Assembly: GCA_009841075.1 (NCBI GenBank)
Contig: VXMP01000075.1
Span: 5,907 to 69,906 of the forward strand
Direction: 5' to 3'
Origin: Acidimicrobiia bacterium
GTDB lineage: Bacteria; Actinomycetota; Acidimicrobiia; Spongiisociales; Spongiisociaceae
DNA: 64,000 nt
In this document: positions 1 through 30,031 of the stretch, piece by piece
Numbering within the stretch: position 1 is the first letter of the stretch
How the letters are laid out: every line of letters begins with the position of its first letter
Position numbers and translations under genes: made by a program
Notes under the pieces: model-generated
What the model saw: only the letters and a program-made list of their open reading frames with translations
Told to the model about the DNA's origin: nothing
Databases searched by the model: none

Positions 1-1
1 T

Positions 2-1015: not shown

Positions 1016-1059
1016 TATTTCTCCCTACCAACTACGGTTGGGTTAAGGGCATATCCTTA

Positions 1060-2537: not shown

Positions 2538-2565
2538 TGACTTCGGTTTGCTACCCTAACTCCTC

Positions 2566-3795: not shown

Positions 3796-3914
3796 CCTTC
3801 AAGCACTATTCTTAAGCGATGGATCCGCTGAAGTTTCCCCCGTTTTCAGGATATTCCAGCCGACGGCATGATTCAGTACCATGAGGATCCGGTGCGGACA
3901 CTGCAAGAAGCGGC

Positions 3915-4360: not shown

Positions 4361-4443
4361 GCTAAAGCAGTTAGAGGAAGTGCTGTGCCGAAAACGAGGT
4401 TCATACACTTTAAAGTGCCCTCCGTCGGGGTGTTTGATGGACT

Positions 4444-5274
4444 TTACGGGCGAGGCCGCCCCGGGAGGAAGGGGTTGGTCCGCCGCATATAGTCGGCGTA
4501 GCCTGGTCTACGGTCGCCGATGGTTCTCTCCAGCATCGCCACACCGGATATCCGTACCAGCAGATAGTTCATGAGTAAAGGTCCGGCGAATGTCCAGACG
4601 GCACCGGCGGCCAAAGCCACCAGAAAGAAACCCCACCAGACCACGCAGTCGCCGAAGTAGTTGGGATGACGGCTATATCTCCACAGGCCGCTATCCAGAA
4701 CGGCGTGCCGGTTGGTCGGGTCGGAACGAAAGCGGCGAAGCTGAAGGTCGGCAACCGCCTCAAACCTCAAACCGATAGTCCAGACCGCCACCCCCAACCC
4801 GTCCAGCCAACCGAGCGGGCCAGCACCCTGGTCGACCAAAACGGCTTGGATCGGCAGCGACACAACCACTGCCACCGCGCCCTGCAGACCGAACACGATC
4901 AGGAGACTCCACCATTCGAAGGGTGGGTAGCGGCGGCGCATGGAGGCATACCGATAATCCTCCGGTTCTCCCCATTTTCGGACGGTGAGGTGGGCCGAAA
5001 GCCGAACTCCCCAAATCGTCACCATCACCAGCATCAGCACCGAGCGTCCCGACTCCGGTCTGCCGACCTCGGATATATAAAGCACCCAGGCCGATAGGAC
5101 AAACAACATCCCCCAGATGGGATCGACGATAGAAGCATCCCTTTTAGCCAGGCTCAGCAGCCAACCGGCCCCCATGACGATGGCCACGACCGAACCGGTA
5201 ATCAGCAGTCCGGTGGTTATCTGCTCCATAAATATGAGCCTATCGTCACCCGACCGGTTAACCCCGAAGCCCAT
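4444..5274 (-). CDS. DUF1295 / steroid 5-alpha-reductase-like integral membrane protein
   Basis: Multi-TM protein with the family-typical SRHPNYFGD motif, adjacent to the photolyase gene. Confidence 0.8.
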   Translation of the reverse strand: MGFGVNRSGDDRLIFMEQITTGLLITGSVVAIVMGAGWLLSLAKRDASIVDPIWGMLFVLSAWVLYISEVGRPESGRSVLMLVMVTIWGVRLSAHLTVRKWGEPEDYRYASMRRRYPPFEWWSLLIVFGLQGAVAVVVSLPIQAVLVDQGAGPLGWLDGLGVAVWTIGLRFEAVADLQLRRFRSDPTNRHAVLDSGLWRYSRHPNYFGDCVVWWGFFLVALAAGAVWTFAGPLLMNYLLVRISGVAMLERTIGDRRPGYADYMRRTNPFLPGRPRP

Positions 5275-5295
5275 ATCTACGACCGAGGGTATATC

Positions 5296-7237: not shown

Positions 7238-8383
7238 TCAAGGCCAGAGGCTGTCCTCCGCCAAAGCCTGATGGAAAGTTGCGAGCGGCCACACCTCAAT
7301 ACCCTCTCCCGTGCGAAAAGCGTGGGGGCCGGCGTAGACCAGGATTCGGCGGACCAACCCAGGCAGGTCGGCTATGGCCCGAAGCCCTTTGACCATCGAG
7401 GTGTGGTAACGGCGGGCGGATTTGACCTCGATGGCCAGGTGCTCACCGCCTCGGCTTAGAACGAAATCAACCTCGGTCTGAGACTGGGAGGGTGTCCAGT
7501 AGGCGATTTCCTCATACAAATTAAGATGATCGGAGTGGGCTCGAAGCGCGCCGAACACCCAACCCTCCAGGAGAGGCCCTCTTTCTTCGGCAACAACCGC
7601 TCCTGACCGCCGCTTGAGCGCCCGCACCAACCCCGGATCCACCCAATAAAGCTTCGGTCGGCGACGCTCTCGGATACGTAGTCTGGTGTCCAAGGCGGGT
7701 AGCCGGGTGGCGACCAGGGTGTCTTCCAGGATTTCCAGGTAACCGTTGACGGTGGACCGGGCTATACCGACGTCACGGGCTATACCGGCTGCGTTCAGGA
7801 CTTGAGTGTGCATCAAGGCGGCGATGGGCAGAAAACGGACGAATCCGGCCAGGTTACGAACTGCCGCCTCGGCCCTGATCTCTTCCCTTAGATAGAGCTG
7901 CGTGTAGCTCTCCAGCGTTTCGCGGCGGCTCTCAGAGTCCCAGATCAGAGCGATAGTTCCGTAACGGAGTACCTGATCAAGGTCGAAATCGTCGCCGAGT
8001 TCGTTGGCAGTCAGCGGATACATCAACCGGCGAACCGCTCGGCCGGCCAACAGGTTGGTTCCGGCCGTCTTCAGCCGGCGGGCACTTGATCCCAGCAGGG
8101 CAAATCTGGTACCCCGTTCCTCGATATGGCGATGTACCTCGTTGAGTAGTCCAGGGATCCGCTGTATCTCGTCCACAACTATCCAGCGGTCCGGCGGTTG
8201 CCCGGATACGATCCTCCCGAACAGGGCCGGATCGGCCAGTAAATCGGTATATAGGGTCTCGTCGAGAAGATCAAGACGAAGCGCACCAGGCAACGCGGTA
8301 CGCGCCCAGGTGCTCTTGCCCACCCCTCTTATGCCCAGCAAGAAAAAGCTTTTCTGTGGGATCTGCGCCAGCCTTGGGTACAT
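7238..8383 (-). CDS. AAA+ ATPase, DUF4143 family, paralog 2
   Basis: Walker A GIRGVGKST and Walker B VVDEIQ are present. It is divergent from the Fic gene. Confidence 0.85.
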   Translation of the reverse strand: MYPRLAQIPQKSFFLLGIRGVGKSTWARTALPGALRLDLLDETLYTDLLADPALFGRIVSGQPPDRWIVVDEIQRIPGLLNEVHRHIEERGTRFALLGSSARRLKTAGTNLLAGRAVRRLMYPLTANELGDDFDLDQVLRYGTIALIWDSESRRETLESYTQLYLREEIRAEAAVRNLAGFVRFLPIAALMHTQVLNAAGIARDVGIARSTVNGYLEILEDTLVATRLPALDTRLRIRERRRPKLYWVDPGLVRALKRRSGAVVAEERGPLLEGWVFGALRAHSDHLNLYEEIAYWTPSQSQTEVDFVLSRGGEHLAIEVKSARRYHTSMVKGLRAIADLPGLVRRILVYAGPHAFRTGEGIEVWPLATFHQALAEDSLWP

Positions 8384-8468
8384 TCTGTCGTCAAAAATAG
8401 CCGAAAAATGACGGCTGGCTATACATTTTTCACTGATTTCTGACGATAGCGGTCGGGGAAGCCATAAA

Positions 8469-9533
8469 TTGAAAGCCCAATTTTTCGGTATCCTATTGAA
8501 CGATTTGACGAACCTGACACCTGGCCCTCGAATCGGCCGGCCCAGCCACCTAGCGGTCTATCAACGACTGGATATCCAGATCCGGGAGTTCAACGTTTAT
8601 ATGAGAGGCCTACCCACCCCGATGGAAGCCCCGGATATCTGGGAGGAAATATTGCATTGGGAGACCCATCACTCCACCGCTATCGAGGGAAACCCGCTGA
8701 TTCTTTCCGAGGTGCAACAACTACTTGAAGAAGGTGGGGTGCCGGACAGCCAAAGCTCCAGGGACGACCTGGAAGTCTACGGATACGCAGAAGCCGCGGA
8801 ATGGGTATACGGGCATGCCGCACCTTCGTCGTCGTGGTCGGAGACCGAACCGCTCCTGACCCTGAACGATGTGCGAACGATCCATCACCTGGCTATGACG
8901 CCGATCAGGGAATTGAATCCCCAGCCGACCGCCGACGACCAGGAAACCCCCGGTTCCTATAGAAGGCACGATATCCGGTCCTTCCCCAACGGTATGACCC
9001 CCACCTCCTGGCAGGTCATCCCCGCAGAAATGGCCACCTGGATCGATCAGGCCAACTCCATCCGGCGCGACCACCCGAGGTTTCCGGCGCATCTGGCCGA
9101 CCTGCACTGCCGATTCGAACAAATCCACCCGTTCTTTGACGGTAACGGACGGACAGGTCGTTTGGCTCTCAACCTGATCCTGGTTCGGCTCGGCCTACCA
9201 CCGGCGATCATCCTGAAGCGGGACGGTGTTAAATATCTGCGTGCCCTGCAACGGGCCGACCGAGGCGAACCCGGCACCTTGGGCGGGATTGTGGCCCAGG
9301 CAATCATGGGCACCCTGCATCGACATTTGCTTCCCAAACTGGCCGCACCCGATCAGCTGGTCCCGCTCGAAGCCCTGGAAACCCCTGACATGAGCCTTAA
9401 TAATCTGAAGGTGGTGGCCACTCGGGGACGGATGCGAGCCCTTCGAGGCACCGATAACCAGTGGAGAGGCACCCGCAGCTGGGTGGACGAATATAAGGCC
9501 AGCCGCAAATACCGCGCCGGCCGCAAAAAATAA
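8469..9533 (+). CDS. Fic/Doc (Fido) family protein with an N-terminal inhibitory helix
   Basis: Canonical Fic motif HPFFDGNGRTGR. An upstream STAIEGN sequence matches the (S/T)xxxE(G/N) inhibitory motif. Confidence 0.9.
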   Translation: MKAQFFGILLNDLTNLTPGPRIGRPSHLAVYQRLDIQIREFNVYMRGLPTPMEAPDIWEEILHWETHHSTAIEGNPLILSEVQQLLEEGGVPDSQSSRDDLEVYGYAEAAEWVYGHAAPSSSWSETEPLLTLNDVRTIHHLAMTPIRELNPQPTADDQETPGSYRRHDIRSFPNGMTPTSWQVIPAEMATWIDQANSIRRDHPRFPAHLADLHCRFEQIHPFFDGNGRTGRLALNLILVRLGLPPAIILKRDGVKYLRALQRADRGEPGTLGGIVAQAIMGTLHRHLLPKLAAPDQLVPLEALETPDMSLNNLKVVATRGRMRALRGTDNQWRGTRSWVDEYKASRKYRAGRKK

Positions 9534-9594
9534 ATTTGTTTTGTTCTGATTATTTTCGGTCAAGGTGAACAAATTCGGCGGGTCGGGTGCCTGA

Positions 9595-10155
9595 TTGTTC
9601 GGTATCCTGTTAAACGTCTTGAGCAAACCATCCCCCTCACCAAGGCGCGGCCGTCCCACAAATCTTCAGATCTACGAGCGGCTGGCCACCCAGATACAGG
9701 AGCTCAACGAGCATTTGGGAGGTCTCCCTACTCCGATGGAAGCAGCAGATACCTGGAAAACCATATGGCATGGGGAGGTGCATCACTCGACTGCCATCGA
9801 AGGGAATACGCTGATCCAGAGTGAGGTGGAGGATCTGCTGGAACGTGGCATTGCGCGTGGCAATCGAGCACTGGTTGAGTATATGGAGGTCAAGGGATAC
9901 GCCGACGCTGCGGACTGGGTATATCAGCAGGCCTCGTCTTCTCCGCAAAGATCGGAAGCCGAACCGCTCTTGACCCTCGCCGATGTGCGGATGATCCATA
10001 AAACTAAGTCCCAACTTGCCTGTTCAACCGGGTTCATCCCAAAATCTCCAATTTCTTTTTCAGGCAACCCATACCGCGATTACCCTTCACACGATTGCAA
10101 TGGCCACAAAGCAGTTGCAGATTCTCAATATGATCCGTCCCGCCCTTCGCCTTAG
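9595..10155 (+). pseudogene. Truncated Fic paralog (N-terminal region only, including the inhibitory helix; no Fic catalytic motif)
   Basis: About 60% identity with the N-terminal 140 aa of the upstream Fic, including conserved 5' leader nucleotides. Similarity ends at ...LTLADVRMIH (about position 9995), after which the frame runs into unrelated sequence. Confidence 0.6.
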
Positions 10156-10274
10156 TTGGCGGGTTACCAAATCCAGCAGATCCGTGCGGGCCGTCTGTAG
10201 GGCTACCTCATGGCTAGGTGAGCTAGGCGTGGCTCTTATAGGTGTAGCGATGCCCGGGGTGCCGTATCGCGTGG

Positions 10275-10559
10275 CTAAGGCTTTTCCGTAGTGGGGTCGA
10301 TGATCTTGCCGATTTCGGTAACCACTGTGGCCGGAAAGCCGCTTCGTTCGGCATGCTCGTCGATCAATTCGGGGCTTTCGGTGACGTAGACGCAGAAGGT
10401 CTTGTCGCCGGCGACGTAGCTGTGCTCCCATTGGATGGGTTTGCCTTCCGACTGCATCGCCTTCAGAACCGAGTTGGATTGCCCGGCTGCGGCCCTCAGT
10501 TGATCTCGCTCGGCGGTTCCGATATCCGGAATGTCCCGTTCTATTACAAAGCGGCGCAT
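10275..10559 (-). CDS. DUF4242 (SCO4226-like, nickel-binding) small protein
   Basis: About 94 aa. MRRFVIERDIP...HSYVAGDKTFCVYVTESPE fits the DUF4242 pattern. Confidence 0.5.
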   Translation of the reverse strand: MRRFVIERDIPDIGTAERDQLRAAAGQSNSVLKAMQSEGKPIQWEHSYVAGDKTFCVYVTESPELIDEHAERSGFPATVVTEIGKIIDPTTEKP

Positions 10560-10638
10560 AAATCCTCCTTGAGGCTGGTTGGACTTGACTTTACAGTCCG
10601 GCGAAGTTCGCGCCGGATCAAGACCGGTGAGCCAAACC

Positions 10639-12756
10639 TTAAGACGGGTTGGTCAGGCGGAAGATGTTGACTTCACTGAAGCTGACGTCATTGACCTCAA
10701 AGGTAAGATGGTCGTCCGCACCTCCCAAGGCCTCCTCAAACGTACCTATCGTCACCGACTCCCAGGATTCTTGGCTGGAGGTGCGCAGGAAGAAATGATC
10801 GTTCTGGTCGTAACCGAGGGCGATAACATCATCCCCCGAGGTAAGGGCGACTATCAACCGTGAACCTAGGTCGGTGGCGACCACCCTTCCCCCACCCATA
10901 TCGTCGTCCTCGGCTTTCCTCGCCCAATAGAAACGGGCGGTTGTGCTCCTAGGAGAACCGTCCTCGGCCTCGGCCCTAATCCGCTCCACACCCGTGTCTT
11001 CGGTGTCCCGCCGATAGGTTAAGGAGGCCTCGCCCTGACGGTTGGTAGCCCTCCTTAGTCCGTCCGACAGACCATCCGAATCATCAGAGTAGAAGGTGAT
11101 GGTTTCGTCTGCTACCGGATTGCCGTATTGGTCGGTCAAGGTGGCCGTCACCCGGTTCAAAACCCCCGAACCCTCATCCGAGGCGATCAGATAATTACCG
11201 GCCGGATAGGAAACGATCAGCTTGGAGGGCCGAGACGCTTCATCCGACCAGAAAAGGACCTGATCGGGCTGGCCACTGGGAGGGATGATCAATCGGCTGC
11301 TGCTCTCATCCTGGAAGGGATAATCGGCACTGGCGTCCAGGTCAAGGCGGTGGTTTCGGCCGGGCGATGTCGAAGTATCCGAAAACGCCTGATGGGACCA
11401 AACCGCCTCGCCCGATTGGTTGGTGGTGATCGTCTCACGGGTGGTTCGGGTTCGATTGTCGGTCCCCCTGATGCGAATGGTGAGGTTGATTTCGACTCCC
11501 TCGTGGGAGACCAGACCGCCTTCATCGTCAACCAGCTGGAAGGTGAAGTTCACCCGATTTCCGAACGGAACCAGCTCGGCATTGGCCTTGAGGTCGTCGG
11601 TCACCTTGATGGCCGAGATAAGTTTCACCTCATCTAAAGGAATAAAGTAGCGATCCAAGTTGTCAAGGTCGAAACTGCTACCTTCTGCGCCACTCCAAGC
11701 CCAGATAATCCCAGGTTCAGAACGGGGAGCCACGGTCAACCTGGTGTTTCCGCTTTCGCCGATGAAGTCCTCCGGGTCGATTTCGCAAGCGGTGCCAATC
11801 CCTAGGGCCATAACACTCGATGTGCATCTGCCGTCCTGGTCAAAGTCCTCCTCCGGATCATAAGTAACGAACACGTCTACCAGCTCGTCCTCGACCGGGG
11901 CGAACGAACCATCCCGAACCGACACCATCACCTCGATTTCGCCCCCTGGCTGCTGCACCTGGCTCAGATCGGCCTGAATGGATATACCGGCCGGCCGAAC
12001 GTTGGTGTGTGCCAGGGTTCGGGTAATAAAAGCGGCCATCTGGCCTCGGGTTACGGAAGCATCCGGTTCGAAAGTATTGGCGGTGGCCCCCTTGGTGATC
12101 CCCAGCTCGTAGATTCGGCGGGTGGCCTCATAGGCGAACGCCCCTACCTGGTCGAGGTCCCGAAACACATTGTCGTCAGGCTCTATACCGGCTATGTCGA
12201 AGTCGCCGGGAGCCGGAGGTGCGTATTGGAGGAAAGCGTCCAGGTAGGCGGCCATTTCCTGACGGGTAACCCATTGGTCGGGACGGAACTCTCTGATGGT
12301 TACCCCGTCCATGATGCCGAGCTCGACCAGCTGATTGATCGCGTTACCGGTGGTGGTAGACAGGACAGCGACATCGGCGAAGCCCTGGTCTTGCGGGACG
12401 GGCAAGTCGATACCGGCTACCACCGCCGCCCGTGACAGAAACAGCGCCATCTGCCGTCTCTTGATGGTGTCATTGGGAGAGAACGTGGTGACAGTAGTTC
12501 CCTTGGCGATCCCGTAATAGGCGAGGCAGTTCACCTCTTCCTCGAAAGTATGGTTGACCATGTCGCCGAATCCGGCCGAGCTGGTGGCCGGACCGACACA
12601 GGCGGAGTACCTGGCCGGATGGTCGGCCACCCCATCTACGGCAGCGACCGGCGAAAGGGCGGGAGGATATAGAGCCAACATGGAACCCACCAGAACCATA
12701 AGTATCAAGGCGGTCAGTCGGGCTCGGTGTCTGTTTGCCAGTGCCTTCAACCTCAT
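10639..12756 (-). CDS. Cell-surface protein with a signal peptide and three N-terminal S-layer homology (SLH) domains
   Basis: Three repeats carry SLH signatures (TRQEMAAYL, TRGQMAAFI, RRQMALFL). The C-terminal region is large and has no recognised motif. Confidence 0.8.
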   Translation of the reverse strand: MRLKALANRHRARLTALILMVLVGSMLALYPPALSPVAAVDGVADHPARYSACVGPATSSAGFGDMVNHTFEEEVNCLAYYGIAKGTTVTTFSPNDTIKRRQMALFLSRAAVVAGIDLPVPQDQGFADVAVLSTTTGNAINQLVELGIMDGVTIREFRPDQWVTRQEMAAYLDAFLQYAPPAPGDFDIAGIEPDDNVFRDLDQVGAFAYEATRRIYELGITKGATANTFEPDASVTRGQMAAFITRTLAHTNVRPAGISIQADLSQVQQPGGEIEVMVSVRDGSFAPVEDELVDVFVTYDPEEDFDQDGRCTSSVMALGIGTACEIDPEDFIGESGNTRLTVAPRSEPGIIWAWSGAEGSSFDLDNLDRYFIPLDEVKLISAIKVTDDLKANAELVPFGNRVNFTFQLVDDEGGLVSHEGVEINLTIRIRGTDNRTRTTRETITTNQSGEAVWSHQAFSDTSTSPGRNHRLDLDASADYPFQDESSSRLIIPPSGQPDQVLFWSDEASRPSKLIVSYPAGNYLIASDEGSGVLNRVTATLTDQYGNPVADETITFYSDDSDGLSDGLRRATNRQGEASLTYRRDTEDTGVERIRAEAEDGSPRSTTARFYWARKAEDDDMGGGRVVATDLGSRLIVALTSGDDVIALGYDQNDHFFLRTSSQESWESVTIGTFEEALGGADDHLTFEVNDVSFSEVNIFRLTNPS

Positions 12757-12953
12757 TCCCTCCCGTTTTCGTTTTACCTCTTAGGACGGCTTAAAGGAAT
12801 TGCCATTTTGCGTGTCTCCTGGGATGGTAGCCCGACCAGGTGGTTTTTTAACGTAACCACCGGTTGAGGGGTAATAAACGGGCGGACGAACCAATTGCCC
12901 GACCTCCCTTTACCCTCACTACAGAGACGAGATCCGATCGGAAACGCCGAAGC

Positions 12954-13397
12954 TCAACGGTGCTTGTCTAGTTGGGCGATTTTGTCCAGCCTGCGACGGT
13001 GGCGCTCCTCCCCCGAAAATCGGGCCGACAGGAAGGCTTGGGCCAGCTCCAGGGCGAAATCCGATTCGACCACACGACCCCCTAGACAAAGAACGTTGGC
13101 GTCATCGTGTTCGACCGACTGACGAGCCGAGTAAAGATCATGGGCCAGCGCCGCCCTCACCCCCCGCACCTTGTTGGCGGCGATGGCTGCCCCGATGCCG
13201 GACCCGCAGACCACTATCCCCCGATCGGTCTCGCCTTGTTGAACCGCTTCCGCCACGGCGATGGCCTGATCCGGATAATCGACCGGATCGGTGGAATGGG
13301 TGCCCAGATCGACCACCTCGTGATCGGCTCCGAGGATGGAAGCGAGGAAGGCTTTCAGCGGAAAACCCGCATGATCGGCACCTATAGCGATTTTCAA
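12954..13397 (-). CDS. rpiB: Ribose-5-phosphate isomerase B
   Basis: MKIAIGADHAGF...VVCGSGIGAAIAANK is the RpiB/LacAB signature. Confidence 0.9.
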   Translation of the reverse strand: MKIAIGADHAGFPLKAFLASILGADHEVVDLGTHSTDPVDYPDQAIAVAEAVQQGETDRGIVVCGSGIGAAIAANKVRGVRAALAHDLYSARQSVEHDDANVLCLGGRVVESDFALELAQAFLSARFSGEERHRRRLDKIAQLDKHR

Positions 13398-20643: not shown

Positions 20644-21498
20644 ATGGGGGTGACCAAGCTTCTCCCCGAGGCCATCCACGCCAAAGTCGGATTGGGGACC
20701 GCTCCCCTGGCCATAGAAGGCCGTCCGAATAGGCATCAGGCCGTAAAGGTGATCGAGGCAGCTATAGAGTCCGAGGTTGGTTTGATCGACACGGCGGATG
20801 CCTATTGCATCGACTCCGGCCGGGAACATGGGTATGGAGAGCGTCTGGTGGCGGAGGCCCTGCGATCCGGGTCCGACCGAAAAGGGATAGTGGTGGCTTC
20901 CAAGGTGGGTGAGTGGCGGCCGGGGGACGGTAGTTGGCAGCTGCGGGGGCATCCAAGTTACCTGAGGGAGGCTTGCGAGCGGAGCCTTAAGAACCTGGAG
21001 GTGGAAACGATCGACCTCCTCCAGCTGCACCGTCCCGACCCTGAAGTCCCCATTGAGGAGTCGGTCGGCGAGCTCCACCGTCTTCAACAGGAAGGCAAGG
21101 TCAAACATATCGGCGTCAGCAATGTCACCGCCTCCGAGCTGCAACGCGCCCTGGCGACCGCCCCGATAGCTTCGGTTCAGAACCGGCTCTCGGTGGTTGA
21201 CCACTTCGACCCGAAGGTGGTTGAACTGTGCGAGGATCATGGTCTGGTTTTGATGGCCCACAGCCCGTTCGGAGGCCCGGGTCGGGCAAATCACATCGGT
21301 CGGCATCCCGGTCTTCGGAAAGTGGCGAAGACGCTTGGTGCCAACCCGTTTCAGGTGGCGATTGCCTGGATGCTCCGGCTTTCTCCCACAGTGTTACCTA
21401 TTCCGGGTACTACGAAACCACACCGAGTAGGGGAAAATATGCGAGCGGTTGAACTCGACCTTATGAACGAAGAGGTTTGGGAACCCTTAGCCAGGTAG
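20644..21498 (+). CDS. Aldo/keto reductase (second paralog)
   Basis: IDTADAYC and LLQLHRPDP AKR motifs. Confidence 0.85.
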   Translation: MGVTKLLPEAIHAKVGLGTAPLAIEGRPNRHQAVKVIEAAIESEVGLIDTADAYCIDSGREHGYGERLVAEALRSGSDRKGIVVASKVGEWRPGDGSWQLRGHPSYLREACERSLKNLEVETIDLLQLHRPDPEVPIEESVGELHRLQQEGKVKHIGVSNVTASELQRALATAPIASVQNRLSVVDHFDPKVVELCEDHGLVLMAHSPFGGPGRANHIGRHPGLRKVAKTLGANPFQVAIAWMLRLSPTVLPIPGTTKPHRVGENMRAVELDLMNEEVWEPLAR

Positions 21499-22650
21499 GT
21501 TGCGGCCGCCGCCGGTTGCGCCATACCAATCGATGATGCGTCCGATTCCGCCCTCAAGGTCGGATACGCTCGACACCAGGGAAATCCGCAGATAGCTGGA
21601 AGCTACTTGACCGTAGGCAGTTCCGAAGGTGGTCGAAACGTTCCAGTTGACCAGATCCAGCGACGCCTGCTTCGAGTCCACTCCCTCCGCCAAGGGAACC
21701 ATTAGGAAATAGCCGCCCCCGGGCACGTCCACCTCGATCCCTCCCTCCTTGAACAGCCTGACCGCCAGGTCGCGGCGGTGCTGGTAGCTACGCCTCATCT
21801 CGCCCACGATGTCCTGCGGTCCGGTGATGGCGGCTTCCGCGGCGGCCTGGGTCATGGTCGGCAGACAGGTGACCAGCGGCTCCTGGATTCGGCTCAAGGT
21901 GGGTGCCAGCCACTTGGGTGCCACCACGTAACCGATCCTCCAACCGGTCATGGAGTAGGTCTTCGAGAACGAATAGAGGCCGAGGACGTTTTCGGGGTCT
22001 TTGCCAAAGGCGTTGGCCGGCGATCGACCGTCGAAGATGATCTCGTCGTAGACCTCGTCGGAGAGTAAGGGGAGATCATGGCGGGCCGCCACTTCGACAA
22101 AGGCATCCACCAGCCCATCGCTGAAAACCGAGCCGCTGGGATTGGCCGGGGTGTTGATTATGAGGAGTCCGGTTCGGTCGGTGATCATCGATTCAACCTG
22201 GGCCGGGTCGGGCATAAACCCGTTCGCCGGGTCGAGGGGATAGGGCGTCGGGATCGCCCCGTGCAGACGGGTAAGCATCTCGAAGTGCGGCCAGGTGGGG
22301 TCGGGTAAAAGTATCTCATACCCTGGTTTAACCAGAGTGGACATAATGAGCGAGACGCCCTGGATTCCCCCCTGGGTGATAATGATTTGGTCAGGAGTGA
22401 CATCGAAGCCGTTCACCCGGCGAAGCTTGTCGGCAATCGCCGCCCGCAGGGTTCCAACGCCGCTCGTGTCCGTATAGCCGGAGCCGGCCCGGGCCGAAGC
22501 AACCGCCGCTTCCACCACATGCGCCGGGGTGGGGAAATCGGACTCGCCGATCTCCAGATGGAATATATCGTCTCGGCCCGCAATCAGGTCGAAGATCACA
22601 CGAATCCCCGACATAGGAACGGATTCGGCCCAGTCGGATACCTTTGGCAT
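21487..22650 (-). CDS. PLP-dependent class I/II aminotransferase (aspartate aminotransferase-like)
   Basis: SFSKTYSMTGWRIGY PLP-lysine region. Confidence 0.88.
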   Translation of the reverse strand: MPKVSDWAESVPMSGIRVIFDLIAGRDDIFHLEIGESDFPTPAHVVEAAVASARAGSGYTDTSGVGTLRAAIADKLRRVNGFDVTPDQIIITQGGIQGVSLIMSTLVKPGYEILLPDPTWPHFEMLTRLHGAIPTPYPLDPANGFMPDPAQVESMITDRTGLLIINTPANPSGSVFSDGLVDAFVEVAARHDLPLLSDEVYDEIIFDGRSPANAFGKDPENVLGLYSFSKTYSMTGWRIGYVVAPKWLAPTLSRIQEPLVTCLPTMTQAAAEAAITGPQDIVGEMRRSYQHRRDLAVRLFKEGGIEVDVPGGGYFLMVPLAEGVDSKQASLDLVNWNVSTTFGTAYGQVASSYLRISLVSSVSDLEGGIGRIIDWYGATGGGRNLPG

Positions 22651-22771
22651 TAGGTGCTACCTCTCTAGGGGGGTGTTTTCATGCTAGTTGCTCTGCGCCG
22701 GGGCAAAATGTCGGAAAGGGATTTATGCAGTCCACTGTTAATCCCCGTGATACCACTGAGAGAGGCTTCTG

Positions 22772-25266
22772 TTACCTACCTGAGGCCCGATAGAGAGCGA
22801 TCAGGCCTTCATTGTTGGCGAGGGTATTGATCTGGTCTCGGATGTTGTGGTCTTTCAGGTCTAGACGAAGCAGTCGTCCATCTATCCGGTCCAGAATCTC
22901 GATTCTCCCGAAGCGGTGTCCGTGTTCTTGGGCGTATAGGGCGAGCCCTTTGGCCTTTGCTACCGAGTCGGCTAGATGGGTTCCGTGGGGATCCAGGATG
23001 TCGACAACTATGCGGTCATCGTCTTGTCGGAAGAAAAGGAAATCGGGATAGACCGGCTGGTGTTCCCCATTTCTTCGTTGGTAGGGGAGGGTGAACGACC
23101 AGCTCTTGCGGGCGGGGTTGCGGAGCCAACCAAGACAGCCGGGGATTTCTGCTTTTAGTACAGCCTCTTCCAGGTTATTGAAGTGGTCGGAGAAGGTCCA
23201 GCCCTCGTCAACGTAAACGTGTCTTCCCCAGCCTGAGGCTTCGGCGGAACATTTCCACACCACCCGCTCCGGGTACCTGATTGTTATCAGAGCCGGCTGA
23301 TCGGACGAGCCGGTTATTTCGTGGTATACGGAGCGGCGACTCTCCGGCAGGCCGTCGATTTGTTCCCAATACTCGCTTAGCCATTGCCCAACCCGATCCC
23401 GAGCCAGGTTCTCTACTCCTTCTATGACCTCTGGGGCAAAGAGCAGCACGGCCACTTCAATCTTGGCGTGAGCGATCTGCTCCACATCGTCAATGCCCTC
23501 CACCGCACGTTGCCAGAATTCGTGATGGAGACCTTCTGCGATCTTGCGGCCCGCCTCGACGAATAGGTCGTTGATATTTTCGGACGAGGCCTCCACCTCC
23601 TGCACGGTGGTGTTGACAAACCTCTGTTCTATCAGGTCAAAGACAAGGGTGCCGAAGGTGACCAGTGACTTTTCGCGTACCTTATCCTGGAAGGTCTGAT
23701 CTTGGCGCTTTTCTTCCAGCTTCGACTGAAGGAATGCGCAGATCTCAGATTTGGCAGATGAGACGGCGTACTGATCAATACCGTCGACGCCCAGCGCTCG
23801 GGCCAGGCTCATCAGGCGGCGAACCTGTTTAGCCTTTCTGTGGGTAGGAACCGTGTAGGAGGGTAACTTGGAGAGCGCCTCGAAGATAGCCGCCTTATCG
23901 TCTGCACGATGTAACGTCACCGCCTCGCCGGATTGTTCGACCTCGACCGGAGGTACGTACTCGTGGTCGGAGTCGGTTAGGCGCTCAACCACCGATTGCA
24001 CACCTTGGGCGTCGTAATGGGGAAGGAACAGCGACACCCCGTTGAGGCTTTCGTCCTGGTTGATCCGCCTGGCGAGCGGGGTTCGAACCATCCTGCCGAT
24101 CAGCTGGGCTATGTAGGTGGCGTCCTTGGCCCGGCGGTAGGACATCATCGTCTCGGCCCGGGGGCAGTCCCAGCCGGTGGATAGGGCCGTCTTGAAGAAC
24201 ACCACCCTGACCTCGCGGTCGGCGGCGATCCGGGAGGGGGCGAGGTATTGGATCACGCGGCCATCCAAATCAAGGTGGCTGGCCTCGTCGAAGGAATGGC
24301 GGAACGCCTGGTTCGGCAAGGCGGCGGAAAGTTCCTCGTTGATCGCCTGGATCGCCTGGTTCAGGTCGGTGCGCGTTCCAGGCTTACCCTTCGGCGCGTT
24401 TTCCACTTGGACAATGAAGAGAGGCACCACCGGTCGCTCGCCCTGCTCGGCGCAGTATGTCGCCCAGCGCTCGGTGTAGTCCTTCCAGTGGCGGGTCGCC
24501 GCCCGCAACAGCGTGATGTCGATCTGCTGGTCGTCGGCGCTGTGGTGGAGCACGATCCGCTCCTTCAGCAGGCCGGACTCACGAACCTCGGCCGGCTCGA
24601 CGTGTACCGGATGAACGGTGCGGGATCCGGCTACCAGATCGTTGAACCGTTTAGGGGTGGCCGAAATGCCCAGCACCAGCGGCGAGGCTCGCATCTCGTC
24701 GGTGCCCTTAAGGAACCTTTGGATAATCGTTTCCGCGTTTTTCTCGTCACCTTTGGTTCGCATACCGCGATGGGCCTCGTCGATGATCACCACAAAGCGA
24801 GCACCCATCCGTTCGATGGTGTTGTCTAACGTCTGCCAGATCGTCCACCATTTTTTGTCCCCCAATGTGGTGAGCAGCTTGTCCCGGCCCAGCTTCTGCG
24901 TGTTCAGAAAGTAGAGTCGGCCCGGGCTCAGCACCTCTTGATTGAAGGACGACTCTATGACCTCCATATCCATCGGGGTCAGAACATCGGAGGTGTTGAG
25001 CATCTTGTTGTAGGTCTGGAGGTTCAGTTCGGGCAGGTCGGTGATCCAAAGAAATATGGCTTGGTCATCCGGGCCTTGCTGATGGTCGCCCTGGAGAATC
25101 CGCTCTAGGAGACGGGTGGCGATGACCGTCTTGCCTGCGCCGGTCGGTGCCGAAAGAACCACCGCCTGGGGAGAGTTTGGGCCTGCGATCGAGGCGGCTT
25201 GACGGACCCTGGTGGTCAGGTCTTCCACCGCCGCCTGCTGGAAATCCTTGAGGACCAGCCGCATCA
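22772..25266 (-). CDS. res: Type III restriction enzyme Res subunit (SF2 helicase + C-terminal nuclease-like region)
   Basis: The start is taken at MRLVLKDFQQ (about 25266), not at the far-upstream ATG of the ORF. Motif I is APTGAGKT and motif II (DEAH) is VVIIDEAHRG. Confidence 0.8.
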
Positions 25267-27425
25267 GCCCAGCACCCCCGACCGTTGACGGTGAAGTTGC
25301 GCGAGTAATCCCAGTAGAGCCTCCGGACCTGCAAGTGCTCGGGTAGGGCCTGGCACATCTCAATGAAACCGGCCTCCGAGTTGGTGACCAGCCACACATG
25401 GGTAACAGACGGGCGTGACTCAAGTTCCTTGGTGAACTGGGCCAGATGCTGCTCGTCAAACAGAACTCCGTAGGTGGAGCCATCCGGCAGGGACCAGGGT
25501 GCGTCACCGTCCCACTCCTCGAACTCTCCAACCGATCCGGACGCCATCCACAGAATCGGGACCACCGCGTTGAAATGTCGGCCCAGCTCCACCAGGTCAG
25601 GATCCAGATAGTCGAGACGGAGGAACTCGACATTCTCTTCGAATCCGTCTTCGTAGTTGTGGTCGGAGAGGTATCGGTCGGGGTACTTACCGGAGGGACT
25701 TGTGCCATCCGACCGAATTCCCTTTATCGCGGTCTCGCACCTCGGCTTGGTAACGGCCTCAAAGATGCCCTTCGCCTCGAACTCGGCATCTCCCTTGAAC
25801 ACCCCCCTTTGAGTCCCGGCCAGCGATTTAGCATCCCTGTCGTTTACCTCGTTGTTAGTGACCAAAACACATTGACGCCGACCGCCGTCCTGGGCGTTCA
25901 GTAGTGCGGTAGCGTGGAGGGTGGTGCCGGAACCCGCGAAGAAGTCAAGAATTACCGCGTCGGGTTTGGAGACCACCAGTGCATCCAGCGTATCGCGTAC
26001 CGCGTAAAGGGATTTCGGAAAATCGAATTGACGTCCCCCCAAAAGTTCTCCTAAGAGTTTGGTACCGCCTGTACCGGCGTCATGGCGGGATCGATGCCAC
26101 ATGGTCTTTATACGACGGTCCCGAGCACCCACATATCTAACAGAGAGCACACCCGTGTCTTCATTTCGACTCACCACTTCCAGCAAACCGGCTTCGAGCT
26201 GGTCCTGTAATTTGGCAGAGAGATAAGAAATCGCCCAGGTGCGCCGTTCGGGGTCGAACTTCCCTAACCGGGCCAGGCCACGGTGGGCAAGATCAAGTAA
26301 CTTCTCGCGCCCTAGGCCCCAATTACCCAAGGATTTATCCTTACGGATAGGCCAAGCCACCGGAAATCCTCCAATGGTTAGGTCAACCTCTGGAGTGAGG
26401 AAGTTGTACTCCGAAGGGTCAAGTAGTCCTTGTTCACCCCTTTCCTTGAGGCTCTCCCCCACATCTACGATTCGGCCCTTCTTCGGGTCGATGGCAATCG
26501 GATACACCATATTCGGACGGTCGGAAGGAAGAGCATTAGTTCCACCTCGAAGTAAGGACTTCCATCCAGGTGCTTGCTTTTCGCCTGCAGTATCACCGCC
26601 GAACGTAAACAAATCATCTGGCCTTGACTCAACCCCTGCCTCGCCGAAAAAGACAAAGTGGGCATATTCCTCAACACGCGAAAAGCGCGGCTGGGTCACG
26701 CCTTTCGGGTTGTTCATAATCGTCACCATCTGGTGGTAGGCATCCGGGAACATCTCATCAAGCAGAACGCCCAAATGGTGCACTTCATGCTCGTCGATCG
26801 TTACCACCAGCACCCCGTCCGGCTTCAATAGGTGCCTGGCTAAGCGGAGGCGTTTTTCCATAAACGACAGCCACTTGGAATGGCGGTAGCGATCATTTTC
26901 GTCTACGAAGCGGTTGTTGTACTTCCACGACTTGTCGCCGGTGTTGTACGGAGGGTCGATATAGATGCAATCCACCTTCCCGGCATAGGCGTATGTCAGC
27001 ACCTGCAGGGCATGAAAGTTCTCGCCGTTGATGACCACATGGGCGGGCTTTTCCGGACCTCCCCTCCTCACGTTCCCCACCGGGGTCAGGCCGCAGAAGA
27101 CCTGTTCGTGGAACTGCTTCACCACCAAAAGGTCCTTGACGGGAATCTTGGCTTCCGGCCCGTCGGTTCCCCTCGGGATGACCGTGGCCACACCGTCCTC
27201 GACCTTCAAGACCCGAAATTGGGACAGGTCATCGGGAGTAGTGCGGTTCTGGACGATTTGCCCCGACCGAACCGGATAACCGAACACCGAAACCGTCTCC
27301 GGAATGTGCTCCTCGAAGACCAACCCGAACTGCTTGGTCTTCTTCAGTTCCTTAACCTCTGAGGCGACCTGCTCCCGTAGCGACGGGTCTTCAATCTGGT
27401 CAATCAGGTCTTCTATCTTCGCCAT
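25065..27425 (-). CDS. mod: Type III R-M Mod subunit, N6-adenine DNA methyltransferase
   Basis: DPPY motif IYIDPPYNTG, SAM-binding motif FFAGSGTTLHA, and an NPPY-class layout. The C-terminal ~66 codons look like GC-rich read-through overlapping the res start. Confidence 0.85.
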   Translation of the reverse strand: MAKIEDLIDQIEDPSLREQVASEVKELKKTKQFGLVFEEHIPETVSVFGYPVRSGQIVQNRTTPDDLSQFRVLKVEDGVATVIPRGTDGPEAKIPVKDLLVVKQFHEQVFCGLTPVGNVRRGGPEKPAHVVINGENFHALQVLTYAYAGKVDCIYIDPPYNTGDKSWKYNNRFVDENDRYRHSKWLSFMEKRLRLARHLLKPDGVLVVTIDEHEVHHLGVLLDEMFPDAYHQMVTIMNNPKGVTQPRFSRVEEYAHFVFFGEAGVESRPDDLFTFGGDTAGEKQAPGWKSLLRGGTNALPSDRPNMVYPIAIDPKKGRIVDVGESLKERGEQGLLDPSEYNFLTPEVDLTIGGFPVAWPIRKDKSLGNWGLGREKLLDLAHRGLARLGKFDPERRTWAISYLSAKLQDQLEAGLLEVVSRNEDTGVLSVRYVGARDRRIKTMWHRSRHDAGTGGTKLLGELLGGRQFDFPKSLYAVRDTLDALVVSKPDAVILDFFAGSGTTLHATALLNAQDGGRRQCVLVTNNEVNDRDAKSLAGTQRGVFKGDAEFEAKGIFEAVTKPRCETAIKGIRSDGTSPSGKYPDRYLSDHNYEDGFEENVEFLRLDYLDPDLVELGRHFNAVVPILWMASGSVGEFEEWDGDAPWSLPDGSTYGVLFDEQHLAQFTKELESRPSVTHVWLVTNSEAGFIEMCQALPEHLQVRRLYWDYSRNFTVNGRGCWADAAGPQGFPAGGGGRPDHQGPSSRLDRRPKLSPGGGSFGTDRRRQDGHRHPSPRADSPGRPSARPG

Positions 27426-27438
27426 CTAATTCCGCTGT

Positions 27439-28050
27439 TCAGTAATCTTCGTCCGACTCATCCTCGGCCAGGCCGCAGGGTTGGTCTAGGGGGTGATCCC
27501 ATATTTCGGGGGAGGACACTGCCGTAATCCCTACGTAGTAGGTCCATAACAGGCCGCCCACTCCGCCAAGGGGGCCGTCTACGTAGAGCTCGTAACTGCA
27601 ACGCATGCCTTTATCGGGTCGATCGGGGTCGTATCTGCGATAGTCTATGCACCGGTTGAGGTCGTCCCAATCCGGCCCCTCCTCCCAGCCTTTGAGGCGC
27701 ATCTTATGGCGGCTATCGGGAGGGTTCTTGTGATCCACGGCTTGCACGGCGTAGTCCAGAATCAGCCGACGGGCCTCGTCGACCGTCTCGACTATCACCG
27801 GGACGGCGGCCTCGATCAAACATCCGGTCTGGCTTTCTATCTCCACCGTATAGGCCAAACCGGCGCGGTGTTTAACCCACCGGATTGCTTCCGCCCAGGC
27901 TTCTTTCCTGGTATTAAACACAGGGCTATAGGTTGAGAGAGGCTGTCCGTCAAGGGTAGGTCGATAGCCCTCTTCGGTCCGCTCGGCACCGGGAGTCGGT
28001 AGGTTTTCAAGAGTTATTTCCCTGGATTCGTTATCCCACTTTGTAACCAT
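27439..28050 (-). CDS. Hypothetical 203-aa protein with an acidic C-terminal tail, first gene of the mod-res operon
   Basis: Co-oriented, 13 nt upstream of mod, lower GC like the rest of the island. No recognisable motifs; ends ...AEDESDEDY. Confidence 0.6.
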   Translation of the reverse strand: MVTKWDNESREITLENLPTPGAERTEEGYRPTLDGQPLSTYSPVFNTRKEAWAEAIRWVKHRAGLAYTVEIESQTGCLIEAAVPVIVETVDEARRLILDYAVQAVDHKNPPDSRHKMRLKGWEEGPDWDDLNRCIDYRRYDPDRPDKGMRCSYELYVDGPLGGVGGLLWTYYVGITAVSSPEIWDHPLDQPCGLAEDESDEDY

Positions 28051-28291
28051 GCCGGAACCCTAACGGGAGTATGGGACAGAAACCTTTGGGATCTTCCGGC
28101 GGGGACGACATTTCTCGGGAAGGCTCGGCCCAACGTTGAGCGTACAAGCTCTGTGGAAGGTGGTTACTATTCCAGGCTATGTCGGGGAGGGCTAACTGCG
28201 GGTCCGATGATTCGCCCAACGGTCTGCACCCTCCCTAGACCTGGGCTAGGGTTAAATGACCGGCCGATACCTGGAAGGAGGTAGGTCTGAC

Positions 28292-30031
28292 ATGAAATAC
28301 GTTCAGAATCCCAGCAGGAGGCTTCGGAGCGTGATCGCTCTGGTAGCGGTTTTGGCGCTGGTGGCGGCGGCATGCGGCGAGGACGACCCGGCACCGACCC
28401 CCACAACCGAAGCCATGATGGAAGAGGCAACCACCACCACTACCGAAGCCATGATGGAAGAAACCACTACCACTACCGAAGCCATGATGGAAGAGGATGA
28501 GCATGAGCATGAGGATGAAGACGAACATGCTCATGAAGACGAGGATGAACATGCCCATGAGGATGAGCATGAGGACGAGCACGAGGATGTGGAGCTGGTG
28601 GTGGCCATCGGACAAGACATCACCGTTCGCGACCAGCGCCTTCCTGGAAACTCTGCGGCGGCCTTTTCTGCTAACCGTCACATCACCGAGAGCCTGACCT
28701 TCTTCAACGCCAACGGTTCCGAGCTGATGCCGGTATTGGCTACGAGTTGGGAACAGGTCGAACCCACCCGGTGGCGTTTCCACCTGCGCGAAGGTGTCCA
28801 TTTCCACAACGGAAACGACTTCAACGCCGACACCGCCGTTTATAGCTTCGAGAAGTCTCTCGATCCCGACTTCTCTACCTGGTACGGCTTCGTGATCAAC
28901 CCGGTCATAGCCGGCGTGGAGAAGGTGGACGACTACACGATCGACGTAATAACCAACGCAGCGACGCCGCTACTCCCCAATATGCTGGCCGTGGTCGACA
29001 TGGTCGATCCCGCCTACGATGTCGGAGAGCAGCAAAACATTGCTCCGGTCGGCACCGGGCCTTACATGTTCAACGAGTTCGTACCTCTGTCGCAATATGT
29101 GATGGACCGCAACGAAGACTACTGGGGTGGACATGAGGCATACAGCCGGATCACCTGGCGGATCATTCCGGAGCAGGCGACCCGCGTTCAAGCTCTGCTC
29201 AGCGGCGAGGTTTCGGCGATCAACGCCATCTCAACCGAGAACATCGCCCAGATCGAAGGGGCCGGAGGCTTCACCATCGCCGGTTCGCCGACGACTCGGC
29301 TGATTATGATCGCCCTGCGTAATGATCGGGCACCTCTCGACAACCCACTGGTTCGCCAGGCCATGAATTACGCGGTCGACAAGGCAACCATCGTCGAGGC
29401 GCTACTACCCGGTATCGCGGTACCTGCCAACGGGATTCTCACTTCCAATATCCCGGGTGCAAATGCCGCGTCAGATCCCTTGGGTCCCTGGCCCTACGAT
29501 CCGGACCAGGCCCGGGCACTGCTGGCCGAAGCGGGATACAACGGCGAGCCGATCACCATCGCCATCGGTGCCGGGCGTTACCCGAGCGACGATTTGGTCG
29601 GGCAGGCCGTGGTGGCCCAGCTTGTAGAGGCCGGGCTTAACATCCAGCTCGAGGCGATCGACTACTCGACCATGCAGGCCGAGCTCTCCAACCGGGAGAC
29701 AGCCGCCTATGACGGCTGGCTCCAGGGATGGGGATCGTTCTACCTGTCGCCGACCTACGAGCTCGAAGCCTTTTTCGGAGGTCCGGACGGGGCACTGCCT
29801 TTGTTCTATGACAACCCCGACTACCAGACGGCGATCGAGGCCGCCATCAACGCCGAGAGCCTTGACCAGATGGTCGATCCGGCCAGGACCGCAGAGCGGA
29901 TTGCCTGGGAGGATGCGGGCGGTATCTTCTTGTATTTCCCGGTGGAGAACCTGGCGACCGTAGATTCGATGGAGGGCTTCTCAGCCCGATTTGACGAGTT
30001 CTTCTACTTCTCCGGAACTCATCTGCACTAA
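28292..30031 (+). CDS. ABC transporter substrate-binding lipoprotein (family 5, peptide/nickel type) with an N-terminal TEAMMEE x3 repeat and a His/Asp/Glu-rich tract
   Basis: GGAGG lies 10 nt upstream of the ATG at 28292. Signal peptide plus lipobox AAACG. Three 39-bp tandem repeats and HEDEDEHAHEDE low complexity. The SBP_bac_5 fold sequence follows. Confidence 0.88.
   Translation: MKYVQNPSRRLRSVIALVAVLALVAAACGEDDPAPTPTTEAMMEEATTTTTEAMMEETTTTTEAMMEEDEHEHEDEDEHAHEDEDEHAHEDEHEDEHEDVELVVAIGQDITVRDQRLPGNSAAAFSANRHITESLTFFNANGSELMPVLATSWEQVEPTRWRFHLREGVHFHNGNDFNADTAVYSFEKSLDPDFSTWYGFVINPVIAGVEKVDDYTIDVITNAATPLLPNMLAVVDMVDPAYDVGEQQNIAPVGTGPYMFNEFVPLSQYVMDRNEDYWGGHEAYSRITWRIIPEQATRVQALLSGEVSAINAISTENIAQIEGAGGFTIAGSPTTRLIMIALRNDRAPLDNPLVRQAMNYAVDKATIVEALLPGIAVPANGILTSNIPGANAASDPLGPWPYDPDQARALLAEAGYNGEPITIAIGAGRYPSDDLVGQAVVAQLVEAGLNIQLEAIDYSTMQAELSNRETAAYDGWLQGWGSFYLSPTYELEAFFGGPDGALPLFYDNPDYQTAIEAAINAESLDQMVDPARTAERIAWEDAGGIFLYFPVENLATVDSMEGFSARFDEFFYFSGTHLH
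28405..28600 (+). repeat. Coding tandem repeats (3 x 39 bp TEAMMEE(A/T)TTTT) followed by a GAnGAnCAT (His-Glu-Asp) microrepeat
   Basis: Direct reading: accgaagccatgatggaagag... occurs three times, followed by gatgagcatgag/gaggatgaacatgc periodicity. Confidence 0.8.

Follow-up and report, generated by a model that had tools for sequence, protein, structure and literature searches.

An orphan gene heads a Type III-like restriction-modification cassette

Three co-directional genes on the minus strand of a 64,000-nt stretch of Acidimicrobiia bacterium DNA (contig VXMP01000075.1; hereafter the window) form a cassette that we interpret, with a probability of roughly one half, as a combination of two modules. 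The first is a two-gene Type III-like restriction-modification (R-M) system, consisting of a methyltransferase (Mod) and a restriction subunit (Res), and the second the product of a preceding 203-codon open reading frame (ORF), ORF203, which would have its own promoter and modulate nucleoside triphosphate (NTP)-dependent restriction. The R-M pair itself is routine; the novelty lies in the orphan gene in front of it, whose family heads restriction operons of two classes. The arrangement as three minus-strand ORFs, proposed in a first-pass annotation, is borne out by the ORF list and the translations, which contain all the motifs quoted there (DPPY and FFAGSGTT in Mod, SAPTGAGKT and DEAH in Res). 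The stop codon of ORF203 lies 13 nt from the ATG of Mod, and the genes are located as follows:

27439–28050, minus strand: ORF203, a 203-aa acidic protein (isoelectric point, pI, 4.57) of an orphan family, with a disordered Asp/Glu-rich C-terminal tail
25065–27425, minus strand: Mod ORF, 786 aa, a Type III β-class N6-adenine methyltransferase
22772–25264, minus strand: Res, 830 aa, with a superfamily 2 (SF2) helicase/translocase N-terminus, a helical middle part and a nuclease-like C-terminus

The ORF203 family is restricted to sponge-symbiont Acidimicrobiia

A hypothetical protein of an 'Acidimicrobiia bacterium' metagenome-assembled genome (MAG) has the same sequence as ORF203, and there are 59 homologues of approximately 145–225 aa (37–74% identity), all of them unnamed or 'hypothetical'. 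Searches of Pfam, PADLOC, NCBIfam and PHROGs gave no match to the protein. When 1.84 billion representative proteins were searched exhaustively with a profile, 29 clusters (50% identity) were returned, all belonging to the small ORF203 family and none representing a fusion, and no relatives were present in the IMG/VR viral contigs. A scan of one genome per species yielded 38 ORF203-family loci (loci of related genomes fetched for comparison are numbered L001 to L134). The taxon-labelled loci all come from Acidimicrobiia MAGs, assigned to Ca. Spongiisocius, Ca. Aldehydirespirator, Spongiisociaceae and relatives, and the family is restricted to sponge-symbiont members of this class.

The AlphaFold2 (AF2) model of ORF203 reached a predicted local distance difference test score (pLDDT) of 85.8 and a predicted template modelling score (pTM) of 0.78; the model had no Foldseek match in PDB or BFVD, and the sequence had no match in PDB. 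Beside its low pI, the protein displays a net charge of -17 and an Asp/Glu content of 19%, the highest among the 42 ORFs of the window, and the median pI of the family is 4.8. Two forms occur in the family, a long one of approximately 205–225 aa and a short one lacking residues ~10–60. Pairwise ratios of non-synonymous to synonymous substitution rates (dN/dS) range from 0.18 to 0.38 in genomes without the McrBC nuclease described below and from 0.29 to 0.57 in genomes with it. Such purifying values in both groups indicate that the family gene is kept by selection regardless of the nuclease that follows it. No description of the family or of its linkage to McrBC was found in the literature searched, and defence-system catalogues have no model for it.

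ORF203 relatives precede McrBC operons

The genes of all loci were clustered, and the loci were searched with the McrB and McrC proteins of L022. Of the 38 species-level loci, 21 carry McrB and McrC, or remnants of them, behind the family gene, as does the additional contig L134; none of the 38 has Mod-Res adjoining. McrB follows the family gene at -4 to +65 nt in 12 loci, with a 4-nt stop/start overlap in L004 and L029. The McrB-like partner is an internally repeated AAA_5 protein of 675–1131 aa with an Mrr_N/PDC-S02-like N-terminus, and the McrC partner matches the Pfam McrBC family (PF10117) at 1e-51. A small Cys-rich protein (85–117 aa, CPGCHRPWPDCAC) is usual in these operons and recognisable in at least 14 loci; the full order of family gene(s), McrB, Cys-rich protein and McrC was observed in L004/L022 (9455–15252) and in ~18 other loci. 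Tandem short and long copies of the family gene, in some cases before McrB, occur in L004, L020, L021, L023 and L041. The position directly upstream of McrB-McrC, where a McrBC accessory gene would be sought, is thus occupied by the family gene in relatives and not in the window.

Most of the McrBC-linked loci represent a single orthologous site, in which prfA-prmC and, further on, luciferase-TauD lie on one side of the family gene-McrB-McrC block and SnoaL-HNH-DLH-PPK2 on the other. At this site McrBC has been lost or has decayed repeatedly while the family gene stayed intact: it is missing from L002, L017, L021 and L024, reduced to the last 53 codons of McrC in L007 and to fragments in L018, and McrB is split in L019. 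A second context comprises two CitMHS transporters, the family gene, variable or unknown genes and transposases (L001, L005, L006, L011, L014 and L015). In L012 the ORF203 homologue is followed, after 370 nt, by a SoFic defence gene (10953–12140; PADLOC 2e-112; Fic_N plus Fic), which an HNH gene displaces in L013. Metabolic genes accompany the family gene in L034, L035, L042 and L048. Overall, the family gene was found in at least six distinct chromosomal contexts. ORF203 appears from this distribution to be a shared leader or accessory gene of restriction operons and not a third Type III subunit.

The Mod-Res pair has a two-gene organisation elsewhere

Type III systems methylate adenine at N6 (m6A) on one strand of an asymmetric site and cleave once two inversely oriented unmodified sites have communicated at the expense of ATP; their Res subunit is inactive without Mod. 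The assignment of the pair in the window to a Type III-like system stood up to Mod profile matches, to the helicase motifs of Res and to the mod-res architecture. The PADLOC model MTase_III (PDLC03645) covers aa 1–713 of Mod at 5e-146, and Pfam N6_N4_Mtase matches Mod at 2.3e-23; its only sequence relatives in PDB are Mod of 6k0w, Mbo45V (7dsu) and EcoP15I Mod (4zcf), in addition to a marginal match to CcrM (6pbd, E 6e-4). The order of its motifs, with motif IV (DPPY) preceding motif I (FxGxG) and a central target-recognition segment, is that of the β class.

The Res ORF had been listed as 22772–25708 (978 aa), but the N-terminal 148 residues of this ORF come from reading the end of Mod out of frame; the true start is the ATG at 25264, which yields 830 aa (MRLVLKDFQ...) and is the same in all homologues. 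The N-terminal half contains Pfam ResIII (2.5e-16) and DEAD (7e-9). The protein belongs to a family of at least 7994 full-length-type proteins, mostly of 825–840 aa, with PF04851 and PF27151 ('YagJ'), several of which their source databases label 'type III restriction enzyme'. An AF2 model of Res (pLDDT 83.4) retrieved SF2 helicases from PDB with Foldseek at 1e-8 to 1e-9. No homology to the characterised Type III Res subunits of EcoP15I and EcoP1I was detected: the match to PADLOC REase_III is weak and partial (aa 352–432, 3.4e-10), and a phmmer search of Res against all PDB chains returned no restriction-enzyme chain, the sole match being a spurious one to Pumilio. Type III membership is based on Mod, on the architecture and on the names given in the source databases.

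The C-terminal part of Res constitutes a further feature:

22772–23176, minus strand: Res C-terminal domain (aa 697–830), a predicted PD-(D/E)xK-type nuclease core

Across 39 homologues (45–74% identity) this part shows invariant E699, P740-D741, D755 and P759-H760 and near-invariant D758 and K770. Its ~135 residues are predicted, from the AF2 secondary structure, to adopt a helix-strand-strand-strand-strand-helix order, which sets the conserved residues at positions known from restriction-endonuclease-like folds and is consistent with a nuclease core of the PD-(D/E)xK type. No profile or fold match specific to the domain was obtained, the full-length Foldseek search being dominated by generic helicases.

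The nearest relatives of the pair (L008, L009 and L010, with Res 72–74% identical) lie on long contigs of related sponge-symbiont genomes and consist of two genes, Mod of 712–722 aa and Res of 830–838 aa joined by an ATGA overlap, with no ORF203 homologue nearby. Plasmid homologues, including H1 and H4, are more distant (Res 33–39% identical over 94–99% of the length) and likewise consist of two genes with a 4-nt overlap, annotated as 'DNA methylase + type III restriction endonuclease subunit R' or 'DNA methyltransferase + DEAD/DEAH box helicase'. In the loci examined, mod lies directly upstream of res; the homologues overlap as ATGA or TGATG, and the window has the same junction with the Mod frame shifted.

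The first gene of the cassette lies outside this canonical two-gene plan, as the first-pass annotation held. That annotation also implied that the 203-aa protein might be a required, conserved subunit of a new three-component Type III system. Its tight 13-nt spacing to Mod would fit such a role, as would the identical three-gene order in three conspecific MAGs and the remnants of the trio in L131 (see below). Nevertheless, both the nearest Mod-Res relatives and the plasmid homologues do without ORF203, none of the 38 family loci adjoins Mod-Res, the usual partner being McrBC, and ORF203 outlasts the deletion of the R-M genes in L131. The distribution of ORF203 has already largely refuted a third Type III subunit, which we regard as very improbable, and with it the description of ORF203 as a conserved first gene of this R-M type.

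A conserved promoter-like box abuts the ORF203 family genes

A family-wide motif, cTGTCACACC-N5-6-TAnnnT-N6-7-ATG (the TGTCACACC box), was found before almost every ORF203-family gene in all contexts. In the 977 kb of fetched loci the full motif occurs 42 times: 40 times before family genes, once before a decayed family-like start and once before the Mod gene of L009. In this last case (L009 5804–5838) the box (GTCACACC...TAGCTT) lies directly before Mod of a two-gene R-M system without ORF203. The copy in the window is degenerate and aligns with those of L131 and L049:

28057–28079, minus strand: promoter-like element of ORF203, composed of the box CTGTCCCATAC, 6 nt, the -10-like hexamer TAGGGT (28062–28057) and 6 nt before the ATG (28079–28051 including the final spacer)

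A TANNNT hexamer 6–7 nt before the start codon, with no Shine-Dalgarno (SD) sequence, is the architecture of actinobacterial leaderless genes. Because the TANNNT box abuts the ATG in the same way, we infer that ORF203 would start a leaderless transcript, from which Mod and Res would also be read. No terminator-like site intervenes on the minus strand, and a scan for σ70 consensus promoters, which is blind to actinobacterial and leaderless promoters, returned no sites. In L025, L026, L027, L030, L031, L036, L041 and others, a conserved palindrome (ATGACAATCAATGTCAT) is located ~65 nt upstream of the family ATG, between the family gene and a divergently transcribed gene for a coiled-coil protein. 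This possible operator has the TGTCA core in common with the promoter box.

The promoter box bears on a possible account in which ORF203 has a role unrelated to restriction and serves as a passenger or promoter donor. Promoterless cassettes, such as McrBC and Mod-Res, would be drawn to its strong leaderless promoter and to the variable region behind it, and would then travel together with ORF203. The box alone in front of Mod in L009 fits this account, as do the purifying selection on family genes without an adjacent nuclease, their occurrence in metabolic contexts, and a downstream content that varies among otherwise syntenic genomes (L002/L004/L007; L001/L005/L006). On the other hand, the 4-nt overlaps with McrB (L004, L029) and the 13-nt gap to Mod point to translational coupling of long standing, and the tandem short and long copies before McrB also count against it. 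Moreover, two mechanistically similar, NTP-driven nuclease partners in unrelated contexts exceed chance, for which a rough estimate gives ~1–2% if ~3% of genes are defence genes. We consider this account to have clearly less than an even chance of being correct, but it is the main alternative.

Alleles and decay of the R-M genes

Two further features lie within Mod:

25650–26647, minus strand: variable central Mod segment, comprising the target-recognition region and the neighbourhood of motif I
25264–25283, minus strand: frameshift site at the 3' end of Mod, with one C absent between 25280 and 25279

Homology of Mod to its relatives stops at about aa 715, and the homologues, of 712–722 aa, finish at the start of Res. 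The last ~70 codons of the ORF in the window (25065–25279) are a frameshift extension that overlaps Res by ~200 nt. Where the window reads GGTCGGGGG, the conspecific locus L049 reads GGTCCGGGGG; one C is fewer in the window. As a consequence, the TGA at 25266–25264, which overlaps the Res ATG, is out of frame, and Mod gains 69 unrelated codons to 25065. This 1-nt deletion may be a consensus or assembly error of the MAG; if real, it would alter the Mod C-terminus and probably weaken the translational coupling to Res.

Comparison with the two conspecific loci L049 and L050 revealed flanking DNA that is 98% identical, whereas ~1 kb of central Mod (L049/L050 8645–9614) could not be aligned by blastn. 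At the protein level, aa 1–200 are 100% and aa 600–715 97% identical, and aa ~215–598 only 20–60%. The closest alleles of this central segment are that of L010 for the window (77% aa identity) and that of L008 for L049 (69% aa identity). Exchange of recognition-segment alleles has been described for Type III mod genes, and we read the central segment of Mod as having been swapped between conspecific strains in this manner. L049 and L050 share a premature TAG at Mod codon 387. No phase-variation repeats were found in Mod or Res. Taken together, segment exchange, a nonsense codon and a terminal frameshift indicate that the R-M part of the cassette is unstable.

A further decayed copy of the same R-M family was observed in the CitMHS context: a fragment in L006 (1350–1670), 8.6 kb from the ORF203 homologue, corresponds to the first 107 residues of Mod (69% identical to those of the window).

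The cassette is accessory DNA

On the low-coordinate side the cassette is flanked by a fused double ABC ATPase, two aldo-keto reductases (AKRs) and a class I/II aminotransferase, and on the high-coordinate side by SBP_bac_5 (a substrate-binding protein, SBP), two permeases and DegT. The ABC-ATPase/AKR and SBP-permease blocks are as first annotated, but the orientation of the aminotransferase (21487–22650) needed correcting: it, too, is a minus-strand gene and follows Res after 121 nt. The intervening stretch forms the last feature of the cassette:

22651–22771, minus strand: conserved post-Res spacer with an imperfect hairpin and an SD-like GAGAGG, ending at the ATG of the next gene

The cassette had been described as visibly AT-richer than its surroundings. 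A dip in GC content does exist, but it is small and not unique: the island has 57.6% GC, within the lowest 4% of sliding 5.6-kb windows over the 64 kb (mean 60.3%, standard deviation 1.9), and equal or lower values occur at 1–5600 (55.8%) and 7401–13000 (57.6%). GC content at third codon positions (GC3) is 0.652 in ORF203, 0.669 in Mod and 0.727 in Res, compared with 0.67–0.78 in neighbouring genes. The dip alone would not establish a foreign origin of the island.

Stronger evidence comes from related genomes. L051, the sole useful relative from a metagenome scan using the SBP, keeps the neighbourhood of ABC ATPase-AKR-AKR, aminotransferase and SBP-permease-permease-DegT (57–65% protein identity) and lacks all three genes of the trio. 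A relative without the island, which the first-pass annotation had called for, was thereby found. It does not reveal the exact insertion boundaries, because the region is rearranged, with the aminotransferase on the other strand and a paralogous gene between aminotransferase and SBP. In the same-species MAGs L049 and L050 (98% nucleotide identity) the order SBP, ORF203, Mod, Res, aminotransferase is that of the window.

In L131, the most informative locus, an intact ORF203 homologue (72% identical, dS 0.48) is followed by the same spacer of 13–14 nt and by remnants of Mod and Res (780–1440), namely the first ~12 Mod codons, with the ATG changed to ACG, and the last 43 Res codons. The deletion spans from about Mod codon 12 to Res codon 787, and a Phd/VapB-like antitoxin-like fragment occupies the gap. 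Beyond Res, conservation extends through the 120-nt spacer and reaches the ATG of the next gene, which is unrelated and 5'-nucleotidase-like, and the neighbours on both sides differ from those of the window. Since L131 keeps ORF203, the R-M remnants and the post-Res spacer within other flanks, the trio with ~55 nt upstream and 120 nt downstream behaves as one block in two settings, in one of which the R-M genes were deleted and ORF203 kept. In both the window (aminotransferase) and L131, the conserved stretch after Res stops exactly at the next start codon; the spacer is absent after Res in L008–L010.

No classical signs of mobility accompanied the island. No integrase or transposase was found in its flanks, and no tRNA within ~27 kb of it. 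The region 22400–28400 contained no Rfam family at E≤0.1. The sole pair of flanking repeats that brackets the island, a 12-nt inverted repeat (22605–22616/28177–28188), was rejected as an insertion scar, about one such pair being expected by chance in 6 kb. That the locus is accessory DNA in its source genome is nonetheless well supported by the absence of the trio from L051 and its occurrence between other flanks in L131; the compositional argument for an acquired defence island is weak. The original description of the locus accordingly held in part: an acquired Type III cassette is retained, and a conserved third Type III component is not.

The same comparisons weigh on an explanation in which ORF203 is a coincidental neighbour, that is, a lineage-specific core gene that borders recombination or defence hotspots and neither travels nor acts with R-M. 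The family gene does mark a constant border of a variable region in two genome groups. However, it occurs in at least six chromosomal contexts; L131 and the window differ on both flanks, yet ORF203, R-M sequences and the post-Res spacer remain together; and L051 lacks ORF203 and R-M alike. We consider a coincidental association improbable.

Comparison with known systems

The Mod-Res pair resembles Type III systems (EcoP15I/EcoP1I; PADLOC MTase_III/REase_III; Pfam N6_N4_Mtase plus ResIII) in its mod-res order with stop/start overlap, in a Mod with DPPY before FxGxG and a variable recognition segment exchanged between alleles, and in a Res with SF2 motifs and a predicted nuclease-like C-terminal domain. 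It differs from them in a Res without detectable similarity to any solved restriction-enzyme chain and with only weak partial REase_III matches, in a Res C-terminus that corresponds to Pfam 'YagJ' instead of a recognised Type III nuclease domain, and in the extra upstream gene. Closer counterparts are the widespread 'DNA methyltransferase + DEAD/DEAH box helicase (ResIII-YagJ)' modules, exemplified by C2U42_03915/03920 of Klebsiella oxytoca pKOR-e3cb and NL394_RS23710/23705 of Paenarthrobacter ureafaciens, which share the Res family, the Mod-Res order and the 4-nt overlap; these modules have two genes, and no ORF203 homologue occurs outside sponge-symbiont Acidimicrobiia. The pair is best called a Type III-like R-M system whose Res comes from a widespread family that few experiments have addressed.

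LlaI/BsuMI, three-gene non-canonical McrBC systems composed of the DNA-binding R1, the AAA+ motor R2 and the nuclease R3, set a precedent, as they too have an additional gene ahead of an NTP-driven motor and a nuclease (bioRxiv 10.64898/2026.08.31.748284). LlaI.R1, of 329 aa, is a two-domain protein with an ERCC4-like fold and basic patches that bind DNA; it stands in for the N-terminal DNA-binding domain that is missing from R2 (bioRxiv 10.64898/2026.08.31.748284). The family gene is placed in the same way before McrB-McrC, but ORF203, at 203 aa, is acidic and has no fold match, and its McrB partners (675–1131 aa) keep an Mrr_N-like N-terminus. For these reasons we rejected ORF203 as an LlaI.R1-type module; Foldseek against an April 2026 copy of PDB, which may predate the deposition of LlaI.R1, gave no match at E<0.1.

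ORF203 also recalls DNA mimics such as Ocr, ArdA and Arn in being small and acidic, with an Asp/Glu-rich tail, and in its linkage to restriction enzymes. Anti-restriction proteins of this kind include the products of chromosomal ardA genes (PMC10746416). ORF203 differs from them in that it shows no sequence or fold similarity to solved structures, is encoded by the host, is absent from viral contigs and is only moderately acidic. Its identification as a known DNA mimic was rejected, given an Asp/Glu content of only 19%, the absence of a fold match in PDB or BFVD and the absence of a sequence match in PDB, which we take to include Ocr, ArdA and Arn. A functional analogy to DNA mimics is possible.

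Finally, controller (C) proteins of R-M systems are basic helix-turn-helix (HTH) proteins of roughly 80–100 aa. Like them, ORF203 is encoded by a small gene in the first position of an R-M operon and has a conserved DNA box in its own promoter; in contrast, it is acidic (pI 4.57), twice the size of a C protein and without an HTH or any other Pfam match, and it was rejected as a C protein.

Proposed role of ORF203

In the two-module interpretation, Mod would act as an N6-adenine methyltransferase whose central segment sets the target, and Res would combine an SF2 ATPase with a PD-(D/E)xK-like nuclease. By analogy with EcoP15I, Mod would methylate one strand of a short asymmetric site, and the Mod-Res complex would spend ATP to reach a second, inversely oriented unmodified site before cutting. 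As Res alone would be inert, we propose that mutations in Mod could switch the whole system off safely. In the second module, ORF203, with its own conserved promoter abutting the ATG, is an autonomous acidic protein that repeatedly takes the first place in restriction operons, before McrB-McrC in about half of the related species and before Mod-Res in the window, where its promoter would drive the whole operon.

How ORF203 might act is a more tentative matter. We lean, at somewhat below even odds, towards a non-essential, protein-level modulator of NTP-driven restriction complexes that would work through an acidic surface or tail, possibly also in trans on further systems of the genome. This role is favoured because the family heads two restriction classes in unrelated contexts, often with a stop/start overlap, and because ORF203 travels with R-M, is duplicated and fast-evolving with McrBC, and is acidic with a flexible tail. 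That the family is an unrecognised accessory component common to Type IV McrBC and Type III R-M systems, which are both NTP-driven but differ in mechanism, and that it tunes or gates restriction, possibly by occupying DNA-binding surfaces or by docking its acidic tail on the motor, is a more doubtful extension and, on balance, unlikely.

Several observations weigh against a modulator of restriction. Some family genes are solitary or lie before metabolic genes (L014, L034, L035, L042 and L048), others remain intact (dN/dS 0.18–0.38) after deletion of McrBC in L002, L007, L017, L018, L021 and L024, and ORF203 is intact in L131, where Mod-Res is deleted; such survival without a nuclease argues for a function independent of the adjacent nuclease. 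In addition, the independent associations are few (McrBC, Type III and, loosely, SoFic), because most McrBC loci represent one orthologous site. The acidity of ORF203 is moderate for a DNA mimic (19% Asp/Glu, net charge -17), and its fold matches no solved structure. Lastly, the 3' end of Mod is frameshifted, so the system may not be fully active in the source strain.

Other features of the window

The other stretches of low GC content in the window hold genes of accessory type, including AAA_14-DUF4143 ATPases (2566–3795, 7238–8383 and 52788–54080), a Fic-domain protein (8469–9533) and a Schlafen AlbA_2/HATPase_c_4 protein (50826–52562). A 705-aa acidic surface protein with SLH and Big_1 domains (10639–12756, minus strand) lies inside the 57.6% GC stretch at 7401–13000. 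Far from the island, divergent tRNA-Ser genes with the anticodons CGA (55019–55107, minus strand) and GGA (56002–56092, plus strand) surround a 221-aa ORF.

Implications

The locus and its near relatives provide a natural series of R-M turnover, from recognition-segment exchange through nonsense mutation and terminal frameshift to near-complete deletion. The interest of ORF203 itself lies in a gene confined to one symbiont lineage, with a confidently modelled fold that has no known relative and a promoter box that is all but absent elsewhere in nearly 1 Mb of related DNA. If ORF203 does modulate the enzymes that it precedes, it would add a new type of host-encoded control to those acting on restriction nucleases, and the family would merit consideration for catalogues of defence systems. 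Exposed to a very high load of phages and foreign DNA, sponge symbionts would then possess a portable acidic protein with a dedicated promoter at the head of their restriction operons.

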